Below, piece by piece: positions 1,931-4,951 of a DNA stretch of 4,951 bases (the first letter of the stretch is position 1; each line of letters opens with the position of its first letter). The translations under genes and the position numbers were made by a program. Source of the DNA: a virus (Duplodnaviria; Heunggongvirae; Uroviricota; Caudoviricetes); the IMG/VR virus record IMGVR_UViG_2695420650_000004. One strand, written 5' to 3'. Under the pieces are notes generated by a model that saw only the letters and a program-made list of their open reading frames with translations, did not search any database and was not told where the DNA came from.

Positions 1931-2344
1931 ATGAAATTAGCTATCAGGCTTCAATTACCGCTGGCATTCGCATCAAAGGAGAGGAGCATGGAAATAAAAC
2001 CAGAAGATGAGTTAAGCAATATTGTTTTATTTCCGGTAAAAGAGGATAACCCTCGTAATCAGGTTAATTTTCTTTATGAGCCATCGGAAAGACCATATTG
2101 CCATCACGCCTCTGTACGGGTTGACGAAAAAGAGCGTCAGGTCCGCTGTAAAATCTGCGGTGCGGTTGTGGAGCCGTTTGACTGGATGCTCTCTGTGGCA
2201 AAAAGAGAAACCAGACTGGCAGATGATGTAAGGCTATTGCGCCAGGAGGAACAGGAAAGGCGGAGAAATATAGAAAAGCTGATACAGATTGAGCGTAACG
2301 CGAAAGCGCGGATACGCAGGGCGACAAAATCCAGAACTGAATAA
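1931..2344 (+). CDS. Hypothetical protein with a putative zinc-ribbon-like Cys/His cluster and a charged C-terminal helix
   Basis: ATG 1931 directly follows the upstream TGA (TGAATG), with AGGAGG at 1914-1919. An alternative in-frame start at ATG 1988 has a better-spaced AAGGAG at 1976-1981 and would give 118 aa. The motif is CHH-x16-C-x2-C, followed by an Arg/Glu-rich coiled-coil-like tail. Confidence 0.7.
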   Translation: MKLAIRLQLPLAFASKERSMEIKPEDELSNIVLFPVKEDNPRNQVNFLYEPSERPYCHHASVRVDEKERQVRCKICGAVVEPFDWMLSVAKRETRLADDVRLLRQEEQERRRNIEKLIQIERNAKARIRRATKSRTE

Positions 2345-2379
2345 TTAAATTTAGCACTGTTAAAAATTTAATCCTTAAC

Positions 2380-2430
2380 CGGAGGGATTTCTGCACCCTC
2401 AAATCATCAGGAGACCACCCGAAAGGGCGG
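2380..2430 (+). repeat. Copy 1 of a 51-bp direct repeat forming two hairpins (second stem carries one mismatch)
   Basis: CGGAGGGATTTCTGCACCCTCAAATCATCAGGAGACCACCCGAAAGGGCGG. Hairpin 1 is GAGGG/CCCTC with a 9-nt loop; hairpin 2 is CCACCC-GAAA-GGGCGG with an A/C mismatch. It matches 2536-2586 at 50 of 51 positions. Confidence 0.85.
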
Positions 2431-2513
2431 GGAGCAGTCACACATCTGTTTCCGATAGCCCCGTTCTAATGCTACACTCTTTGATATTTTTATGACCCCA
2501 ATAAACATATTTA

Positions 2514-2535
2514 NNNNNNNNNNNNNNNNNNNNNN
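2514..2535. other. Assembly gap or masked bases (22 N)
   Basis: A run of 22 N characters read directly; it abuts the 5' edge of repeat copy 2. Confidence 1.
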
Positions 2536-2586
2536 CGGAGGGATTTCTGCACCCTCAAATCATCAGGAGACCGCCCGAAAGGGCGG
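2536..2586 (+). repeat. Copy 2 of the 51-bp direct repeat; hairpin 2 is perfect with a GNRA (GAAA) tetraloop
   Basis: CGGAGGGATTTCTGCACCCTCAAATCATCAGGAGACCGCCCGAAAGGGCGG. Stem 2 is A-CCGCCC-GAAA-GGGCGG-T (7 bp). The repeat ends 6 nt before ATG 2593. The upstream extent is hidden by the N run. Confidence 0.85.
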
Positions 2587-4285: not shown

Positions 4286-4294
4286 CAAACAAAA

Positions 4295-4321
4295 ACCCCG
4301 GATTGATGGTCCGGGGTTTTT
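4295..4321 (+). terminator. Rho-independent terminator closing the HNH/DUF551 operon
   Basis: An 8-bp GC-rich stem ACCCCGGA/TCCGGGGT (4295-4302 and 4310-4317) with a 7-nt loop, followed by TTTT at 4318-4321. An A-run upstream means it could work in both directions. Confidence 0.8.
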
Positions 4322-4455
4322 GAAGGAAACAAAACAGAAACAGCAATTGCCGTTACCTGTTGTTACCATGGCAAGTAAACGTATCTCAGGCGAGCGCATT
4401 GCGCCGTTCTGACGCAGATAAACTAGCCTGGATAGATGGTGCTGGCAATAAAAAA

Positions 4456-4491
4456 TAGCGTTTTCTTATCGGTGTCGGTAAGATTGCTGCG
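4456..4491 (+). promoter_or_regulatory. Putative weak promoter of the hok/mok mRNA
   Basis: -10-like TAAGAT at 4479-4484 with a poor -35. The predicted start near 4491 would give a 5' end GGGUGCUUGAGG, resembling the plasmid R1 hok mRNA 5' end (GGCGCUUGAGG) as I recall it. Confidence 0.4.
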
Positions 4492-4540
4492 GGTGCTTGA
4501 GGCTGTCTGCCTCGGGTATGTCACTGTAAGGCAGACAGAG

Positions 4541-4611
4541 AAAAGCCCCAGTTAACATTACGCGTCCTGCAAGACGCTTAACATTAATCTGAGGCCCAAT
4601 CTATGTCTCAC
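4541..4611 (-). ncRNA. sok: Sok-like antisense RNA (type I antitoxin), predicted
   Basis: A minus-strand promoter is readable as -35 TTGCCT (complement of 4641-4646), a 17-bp spacer, and -10 TAACCT (complement of 4618-4623), which parallels my recollection of the R1 sok promoter. The transcript would be antisense to the mok ribosome-binding site and start codon. A predicted terminator is a 7-bp stem (complement of 4589-4595 paired with 4545-4551, one G-U pair) followed by UUUU. Confidence 0.5.
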
Positions 4612-4815
4612 AAATGTAGGTTAGCCTCTTACGTGCCGAAAGGCAAGGAGAAGCAGGCTATGAAGCAGCAAAAGGCGATGTTAATCGCCCTGATCGTCAT
4701 CTGTTTAACCGTCATTGTGACGGCACTGGTAACGAGGAAAGACCTCTGCGAGGTACGAATCCGAATCGGCCAGACGGAGGTCGCTGTTTTCGTAGACTAC
4801 GAATCTAGAGAGTAA
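4603..4815 (+). CDS. mok: Mok-like reading frame (in-frame N-terminal extension of hok that couples hok translation)
   Basis: ATG 4603 with GAGG at 4591-4594. The 70-aa ORF MSHKCRLASYVPKGKEKQA-MKQQ... has the same architecture as chromosomal MokC/HokC as I recall it. Confidence 0.6.
   Translation: MSHKCRLASYVPKGKEKQAMKQQKAMLIALIVICLTVIVTALVTRKDLCEVRIRIGQTEVAVFVDYESRE
4660..4815 (+). CDS. hok: Hok/Gef family type I toxin (51 aa)
   Basis: MKQQKAMLIALIVICLTVIVTALVTRKDLCEVRIRIGQTEVAVFVDYESRE is near-identical in pattern to HokD/RelF and HokC/Gef. Ribosome-binding site AAGGAG at 4645-4650 precedes ATG 4660. Confidence 0.85.
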   Translation: MKQQKAMLIALIVICLTVIVTALVTRKDLCEVRIRIGQTEVAVFVDYESRE

Positions 4816-4876
4816 GAGTGACCAGGCGGGAGAGTAATCTCCCGCCACCTTTGATGTGTCAGGCATCCTCAACGCA

Positions 4877-4914
4877 CCCGCACTTAACCCGTTTCGGCGG
4901 TTTTTTTGGTAATG
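4877..4914 (+). terminator. Probable 3' end and terminator of the hok mRNA (weak hairpin plus U7)
   Basis: CCGC...GCGG and CCG-TTT-CGG pairings followed by TTTTTTT at 4901-4907. It lies just downstream of the 3' fold-back element GCACCCGC at 4874-4881. Confidence 0.45.
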
Positions 4915-4951
4915 ACTCCAACTTATTGATAGTGTTTTATGTTCAGATAAT

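Follow-up and report, generated by a model that had tools for sequence, protein, structure and literature searches.

In bacteriophage T4, the translation initiation regions of genes 38 and 25 are split (Nivinskas et al. 1999; Malys & Nivinskas 2009, reviewed in PMC3014915). A hairpin between the Shine-Dalgarno (SD) sequence and the start codon reduces their spacing from 22 to 5 nucleotides (nt) in gene 38 and from 27 to 11 nt in gene 25, and mutagenesis, reporter fusions and dimethyl sulfate probing have shown that this intervening hairpin enhances initiation (PMC3014915). A second precedent comes from the lambdoid phages, for whose module exchange boundary (linker) sequences were proposed, according to the part of PMC3029335 that cites Susskind & Botstein 1978 and, for phage HK620, Clark et al. 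2001. Here we describe an intercistronic element that shares features with both. It lies in a 4,951-nt window (the whole stretch of DNA that was analysed) from a virus of the Caudoviricetes, IMG/VR record IMGVR_UViG_2695420650_000004, in which the initial annotation had noticed a 51-nt direct repeat with one mismatch, folding into two hairpins. Both copies are indeed present, at positions 2380-2430 and 2536-2586, with A2417/G2573 as their sole difference, and no match comparable to the repeat arose in dinucleotide-preserving shuffles.

On comparative grounds, the repeated sequence is a genuine intercistronic cassette of ~95 nt (2337-2430) that is both widespread and unannotated, and its two-copy, 156-bp arrangement is almost certainly a scaffolding artefact, as related assemblies indicate. 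The copies would derive from two sister prophages, referred to below as A (QueH-type, copy 1) and B (DUF4014-type, copy 2). The interpretation that we regard as probable joins this artefactual origin with two roles of the cassette, one as a hairpin-bridged ribosome-binding site and the other as a homology patch for module exchange. As in T4 genes 38 and 25, SD and start codon are 22-27 nt apart, a stable stem-loop would cut the effective spacing to ~5-11 nt, and the whole occupies a junction between two genes of a phage operon and is kept among close relatives. The differences are that the sequence is unrelated, that the phages concerned are temperate and lambdoid or Rac-like whereas T4 is T-even, and that one hairpin serves many unrelated genes from within a cassette of stop codons, a masked first SD and an anti-SD; moreover, the T4 function was shown experimentally, while that of the element is proposed from comparison. 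With the lambdoid boundary sequences it shares the character of a short conserved sequence at gene boundaries between reassorting non-homologous modules, but, unlike them, it has a definable translation-signal anatomy, and its conservation can be put down to function and not to recombination only.

Read from its 5′ end, the element comprises a stop-rich stem, an A/T linker, a conserved core, the first SD (SD1) within hairpin 1, a variable linker, the second SD (SD2), hairpin 2, and an A/T-rich spacer of 6-11 nt that leads to the start codon. Its limits were set by aligning instances with unrelated flanks from phages including 640R1, ArgO145, Rac, PhiR42_1, 666R9 and mEp460, among which conservation begins and ends sharply; copy 1 of the window, on the plus strand like copy 2, the flanking genes and the sok/hok region, is the complete element (2337-2430) and overlaps the end of an upstream zinc-ribbon-like gene of 118 amino acids (1988-2344). 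The repeat of the initial annotation is in the sequence as stated, but the alignments make the conserved unit ~95 nt and not 51 nt: since copy 2 begins right after a run of undetermined bases (N), the length of 51 nt and the left edge of the repeat were set by the end of a contig, with no biological boundary there. The stop-rich mini-hairpin CTGAATAATTAAATTTAG (2337-2354) carries TGA at 2338, TAA at 2342 and TAA at 2346 in three frames, as well as TAG at 2352, and one of its stem pairs alternates between G-U and G-C; the A/T linker that follows it is unconstrained. The core AATCCTTAACCGGAGGG (2370-2386; in the consensus AATCCTTAACC, then GGAGG) ends in SD1 (GGAGG, 2381-2385), which contributes to the 5′ arm of hairpin 1 (2382-2400), where GAGGG pairs with CCCTC around a 9-nt loop in the minimum free energy (MFE) fold; pairing holds in 98% of cells, and three variants have G-U pairs. 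SD2 (2409-2414) reads AGGAGA in the window and AGGAGG in most copies, and its GGAG is kept in 126 of 126 instances. Hairpin 2 (2415-2430 in copy 1) follows directly, with the 16-nt consensus CCGCCC-GAAA-GGGCGG and a stem of 6-7 base pairs (bp), the optional seventh pair being formed by the last base of SD2 with a U after the stem. The six-bp stem is perfect or wobble-paired in 113 of 126 instances and the loop is GAAA in 118 of 126, with the variants GGCA, UAAA and AAAA, which are not GNRA loops.

Folding of the full element as RNA places both hairpins in the MFE structure (-33.5 kcal/mol, z = -3.76), in agreement with the 5-bp stem with a 9-nt loop and the GC stem with a GAAA loop that had been described from the letters of the window. 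The single mismatch had likewise been said to disturb the second stem of copy 1, and it does: the copy 1 allele CCACCC-GAAA-GGGCGG has an A2417-C mismatch and a hairpin 2 of -7.0 kcal/mol, against -12.4 kcal/mol for the consensus and copy 2, and the mean pair probability of the consensus hairpin 2 is 0.84. Copy 2 (2536-2586) is the 3′ 51 nt of the element of prophage B, sister assemblies showing the full 5′ part before it, and comprises hairpin 1 (2538-2556), SD2 (2565-2570) and a perfect hairpin 2 (2571-2586). As had been noted, it ends 6 nt before a small open reading frame (ORF): the A/T-rich spacer TAATGA is followed by a DUF4014 ORF of 72 amino acids with its ATG at 2593 (spacer and ORF, 2587-2811), the gene that the bridged SD would serve in the window. 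A small ORF running through the element itself was considered and rejected, since a canonical start codon is lacking and the frame is broken by 2-nt indels between variants. Two variant forms may be recorded here. In L009, L107, L113 and L127 a poly-G tract GGAGGGGGGGGCUGCA replaces the ATTTCTGCA loop of hairpin 1, and this homopolymer could vary in length. In the truncated variant L278 a different hairpin, GCCACGG-GTTC-CGTGGC, follows AATCCTTAA and is itself followed by GGGAGATT and the ATG, so that the hairpin precedes the SD instead of following it.

Some 250 instances were collected from one genome scan and three viral-contig scans, for each of which another part of the element served as anchor. 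All are intergenic, and in ~90% an ORF on the same strand starts just past the hairpin. Among 5,426 finished Escherichia coli genomes the element is found in 1,699 (31%), at 2,062 places, with a median of one and a maximum of five per genome, E. coli ATCC 25922 being one of the carriers; about one third of finished E. coli genomes thus carry an element that is yet unannotated, and a full-text literature search for its sequence gave no match. In the lambdoid and Rac-like prophages of E. coli and Shigella its place is either behind the replication genes of the early-right operon or far inside the early-left one. Absence from homologous prophages, which the initial annotation had named as an observation that would speak against it, was not what we found, as the homologous prophages carry the element. 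In a scan of one genome per species, 98 of 105 matches were chance matches to a 17-mer, and the true ones came only from E. coli, Shigella, one Citrobacter and one probable contaminant, so that distant homologues are not available to add covariation. Two database entries of other names, the 'Actinobacillus phage' PP818812.1 and contig L204 of a 'Collinsella' metagenome-assembled genome, hold E. coli-type copies at 88-100% identity and are probably mislabelled or contaminant.

The evidence for a bridged ribosome-binding site lies mainly in the start region. The first scan gave 126 instances, and in 114 of them the ATG of an ORF of 25 codons or more follows shortly after hairpin 2, nearly always at 6-11 nt. 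At least five unrelated families are represented among these ORFs, with DUF4014, DUF7167 and several of unknown nature. The linear distance from SD2 to the AUG is 22-27 nt and falls to 6-11 nt when the 16-nt hairpin is looped out (114 of 126). Spacers lacking an SD of their own, such as TAATGAAAA, TAAGAA, TAGTGAA, TAATAAATA and AACAGATA, are A/T-rich, and the sole class with one (GGAG) is TGGAGATAATA, seen at six loci. A natural control is provided by OkiPb01716, where a gene inserted directly after the element uses the hairpin start, its ATG lying 9 nt past the stem, and the displaced DUF4014 gene has a plain AAGGAG 7 nt before its GTG. By analogy with T4 genes 38 and 25, hairpin 2 would loop out 16 nt and present SD2 at an effective 6-11 nt from the AUG, and SD2 could then start translation of whichever gene follows; the 5′ part of the cassette holds stop codons in all three frames within a small A/T hairpin. 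That a hairpin might bring GGAGA close to the ATG had already been suggested in the initial annotation, and of the functional readings it is the one best supported by comparison, namely by seven or more unrelated ORF starts placed 6-11 nt past the hairpin, almost always with no further SD between, and by a linear spacing equal to that of the T4 genes, although its support from covariation is weak.

A further line of evidence concerns SD1. In a split form of the element, seen in 18 of the 125 instances of the 3′-anchored scan, an ORF of 70 amino acids lies inside the element: SD1 is followed by TATATCA and an ATG, which gives this ORF a canonical spacing of 7 nt, and the ORF ends with TAATGTCA immediately before SD2 and hairpin 2. 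Because SD1 serves the 70-amino-acid ORF in the split form, the 5′ arm of hairpin 1 is a real ribosome-binding site; in the compact form SD1 has no start codon and is paired with CCCUC. An SD followed by a hairpin and a start was found 155 times in 1.9 Mb and not once in shuffled sequence.

Sequence diversity is distributed in a way that likewise agrees with a function in RNA. Among 40 distinct compact elements that share the upstream gene, nucleotide diversity (pi) is 0.078 at the third codon positions of that gene, and within the element it is 0.011 in the stop-rich hairpin, 0.014 in the core, 0.022 in the loop and 0.020 in the 3′ arm of hairpin 1, 0.025 in the 3′ arm of hairpin 2, 0.135 in its C-rich 5′ arm, and 0.10-0.14 in the two linkers. 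The C-to-U changes in the C-rich arm preserve G-U pairs, and the asymmetry between the two arms of hairpin 2 fits selection on the plus-strand RNA.

Several observations weigh against this interpretation. All 155 cases of the architecture belong to one hairpin family, and none with non-homologous stems was found in these phages, so common descent, and not independent evolution, accounts for part of the conserved spacing; the sequence anchors used in sampling also bias the conservation estimates of the anchored parts. The Rac, Qin and DLP12 prophages of E. coli K-12 lack the element, and the K-12 transcriptome data are therefore not applicable. Covariation, which had been proposed as a check on the stems, gives a divided answer: across 62 distinct sequences the homologues are indeed paired (97.4% of cells), but compensatory change is weak, with a single compensatory A-U pair in hairpin 2, seen in L037, and a single change in hairpin 1, seen in L255 (GAGUG/CACUC, or GAGTG/CACTC as DNA), and the observed scores are reached by 97-118 of 500 shuffles and are not significant. 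RNAalifold, moreover, favours a helix between CUC and the GAG of SD2 over hairpin 1, which would mask SD2, and the predicted accessibility of SD2 is only ~0.42. The CUC/SD2 helix is about as compatible with the alignment as hairpin 1 and is also not above the shuffled controls; with these predicted folds, a toggle between SD1, the anti-SD and SD2 is possible.

If the hairpin-bridged SD were confirmed, the mechanism of T4 genes 38 and 25 would extend to temperate lambdoid phages, which would help to explain the prompt expression of newly gained accessory genes in prophage operons and could improve the prediction of start codons and ribosome-binding sites for small prophage genes. A more elaborate version of the same idea, tentative and rather unlikely as a whole, would make the cassette a 'plug-in adapter' composed of an all-frame stop, a decoy SD1 that keeps CCCUC off SD2 (or an on/off switch between the two pairings), the hairpin-bridged SD2, and a hairpin 2 foot acting as a structure-directed hotspot for the capture of immediately translatable genes, such as QueH, the convergent cassettes and accessory ORFs.

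A mainly negative or protective role of hairpin 2, as a translational repressor or thermosensor that occludes the start or as a barrier to RNase, with no bridging involved, has some points in its favour: the stem is very stable (-12.4 kcal/mol), the MFE fold in the DUF4014 context also pairs the start region with sequence 5′ of SD2, and the hairpin persists with no start codon behind it in the QueH and convergent-cassette classes. We nevertheless consider this unlikely, as the only SD for the downstream genes lies 5′ of hairpin 2 and none would be usable without bridging, ORFs that are unrelated keep to a distance of 6-11 nt from the hairpin, and hairpins of this kind enhance initiation in the T4 precedent.

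The second role in the favoured interpretation, that of a homology patch, is suggested by the variety of genes around the element. In a set of 121 instances, the upstream flanks fall into nine sequence classes and the downstream flanks into 15, joined in 33 different pairings; more than one partner is seen for six of the upstream and seven of the downstream classes, and the internal polymorphic blocks of the element are themselves found in differing combinations. The comparison shows that the flanking genes reassort around a constant cassette, as in the boundary-sequence model of lambdoid mosaicism. Prophages A and B differ by a whole module extending from the foot of hairpin 2 to sok/hok (~4481), and the modules that abut hairpin 2 include QueH with its own leader and a convergent cassette on the reverse strand. 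The cassette would serve as a homology patch or boundary for module exchange, with the sok/hok region, where A/B homology resumes (4481-4891; 90.7% identity to the QueH-type locus), as the right-hand anchor. The conservation of this boundary would be explained by the translation function, and confirmation of the bridged SD would give a sequence-defined boundary whose conservation such a function accounts for. The junctions could instead point to a site of structure-directed insertion or recombination acting on DNA at the 3′ foot of hairpin 2, where cassettes (QueH, a convergent module of two genes, various ORFs) would be put in by a dedicated enzyme such as the neighbouring HNH endonuclease, since at least six unrelated downstream sequences begin 0-2 nt from GGGCGG and the B-type module has an HNH gene. 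This seems quite improbable, however: most junctions are better placed at the start codon, past a homologous TAATGAA-type spacer, most modules have no HNH gene, neither target duplication nor a recombinase signature was seen, and the strand-asymmetric variation favours selection on RNA.

Two of the modules merit a separate description. QueH, an epoxyqueuosine reductase, makes up a module by itself, with the element on one side and hokD on the other, in prophages of Shigella and E. coli (for example L004:5232-5979); its 82-nt leader has no obvious SD, and window positions 2431-2513 are the start of this module, holding the leader and the A of the QueH start codon, at which the left contig ends, as the alignment to FDAARGOS_943/944 and gap-free sister contigs show. 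The convergent reverse-strand cassette ends ~13 nt past hairpin 2 in L069, L260 and L199 (Citrobacter braakii) and holds an ORF of 184 amino acids beginning MNKINVLGVIIKHYK together with one of 97 or 310 amino acids; it may be an accessory or defence module.

The two-copy arrangement in the window is best understood from the same pair of prophages. In the type A arrangement one copy of the element is followed by the 82-nt leader, QueH and hokD, and in type B one copy is followed by DUF4014, HNH, a hypothetical gene, DUF551 and hok. The left contig (63-2513) matches prophage A of the finished genome FDAARGOS_944 at 99.3% identity, the right contig (2536-4907) matches its prophage B at 99.7%, and the two loci are ~718 kilobases apart in that genome; both types are likewise present, as separate single-copy loci, in two more finished genomes, Shigella flexneri SFBU1023 and E. 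coli ECMA0423. Across finished E. coli genomes, the homology to the left side mostly ends exactly at window position 2430. The allele of the upstream 118-amino-acid protein in the window, which was used to find the sister assemblies, occurs only in fragmented Shigella-like drafts. Seven gap-free contigs with this allele run from the A2417 allele, which accompanies the QueH arrangement in the sister contigs, through the leader to an intact QueH, and one gap-free sister contig shows the type B arrangement.

The position of the breaks is consistent with this picture. Identity between A and B is unbroken over window positions 2117-2416 (300 nt), which cover the 3′ part of the 118-amino-acid gene and most of the element, with flanking differences at 2116 and at the A/G site 2417. 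The first base of copy 2 directly follows the run of 22 N at 2514-2535, so that the contig after the gap begins, truncated on its 5′ side, 37 nt before the nucleotide corresponding to 2417, the only A/B difference within the repeat. Two further scaffolds also link A and B pieces over N-runs at other points; in L241 the contig after the gap begins at the equivalent of 2117, and in L242 the contig before the gap stops at the equivalent of 2416. Breakpoints of three independent scaffolds at the edges of the identical segment are as expected from repeat collapse by a k-mer assembler followed by scaffolding. The assembler would have broken at the A/B-identical repeat, and the scaffolder would then have linked a contig of the Rac-like prophage A (element, QueH) to one of its sister prophage B (element, DUF4014, HNH, hypothetical gene, DUF551, hok) across 22 N, each prophage in truth holding a single copy.

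The initial annotation had treated the two copies as a feature of one locus, and had allowed that the second might prove an assembly duplication; the comparative assemblies, with one copy per prophage in sister contigs and finished genomes, overturn the former view and effectively establish the latter. True adjacency, through local duplication or through a recombinant in which QueH is deleted and a second partial element lies ~106 nt after the first, would fit the scaffold as given, with copies 156 bp apart, and a run of 22 N is short and might be a small real gap. The comparison covers related assemblies, and a real local rearrangement in the source genome is conceivable. We regard adjacency as very unlikely even so: the seven sister contigs with the same alleles lead from copy 1 into an intact QueH, no gap-free assembly has both copies on one molecule, finished genomes place the two types at separate loci, the three breakpoints coincide with the edges of the shared repeat, and copy 2 starts exactly at a contig end. 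Nor were two copies at such a spacing found at any of the ~250 loci examined, and QueH was never found upstream of an element among the instances scanned, as a real tandem would need. For genome scanning the case is a caution, in that a near-perfect repeat beside an N-run may represent two paralogous prophages stitched together, recognisable from breakpoints at the edges of the shared segment.

The remaining readings of the element as an RNA fare less well than a bridged ribosome-binding site. The GCCC-GAAA-GGGC of hairpin 2 resembles the boxB stem of the lambda nut site with its GNRA-type loop, and the likeness extends to the short G+C stem (GCCC/GGGC), the purine-rich loop and the placement on an early phage transcript; the two-hairpin layout also loosely recalls put, and copies are found in the early-left as well as the early-right operon. 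The initial annotation had offered, among other readings, a cis-acting signal for antitermination or processing; this would be a nut/boxB-like or put-like RNA, acting on RNA polymerase or bound by an N-like protein. The comparison argues strongly against it and makes it highly improbable: the loop is a tetraloop where boxB has a pentaloop; no boxA-like match is present on the plus strand in 2337-2415, the boxA search being at chance level; and the element is found between an SD and a start codon, after replication genes or deep in the leftward operon and not just downstream of the early promoters, a position wrong for a nut site. In addition, the split form uses SD1 as a ribosome-binding site, the 21 phage records that blastn retrieved at 'distant' sensitivity do not include HK022, and Rfam has no match on the element. 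A small regulatory RNA gene, another of the early suggestions, would suit a short, conserved, structured and intergenic prophage sequence but is the least credible reading of all, since neither a promoter nor a terminator consensus was found at the element on either strand and the element is co-oriented within operons with start codons directly after it.

An Rfam scan at E ≤ 1 returned nothing overlapping 2337-2600, in keeping with the earlier statement that the motif was not recognised as a named element, and the only match in the window to reach its gathering score was sok. The scan for promoters and terminators gave no promoter-like site at the element and no terminator-like site in 1900-2900. 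An intrinsic terminator is excluded, as hairpin 2 is followed by TAATGA or GGAGCA and not by a U-tract, in line with the initial remark that the hairpins are not simple terminators.

Elsewhere in the window, a complete sok/hok (HokD-type) type I toxin-antitoxin locus lies at 4491-4815, with the Rfam match to sok at 4491-4665 (118 bits) and the hok ORF starting at ~4660; it is preceded by a terminator with a perfect 13-bp stem at 4290-4322. Both ends of the scaffold are occupied by insertion sequences (IS), an IS600-type end at 1-63 that cuts a ydaU-like replication gene and an IS1 end of 44 nt at 4908-4951, just past hok, and IS ends at both termini are typical for contig ends in IS-rich Shigella drafts. 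Two gap openings in the alignment of 63-2513 to FDAARGOS_944 suggest frameshifts in the left contig, and the disrupted ydaU-like region contains a short tandem run of GAGGAA, gaggaagaggaagaggaaga, at 373-391.

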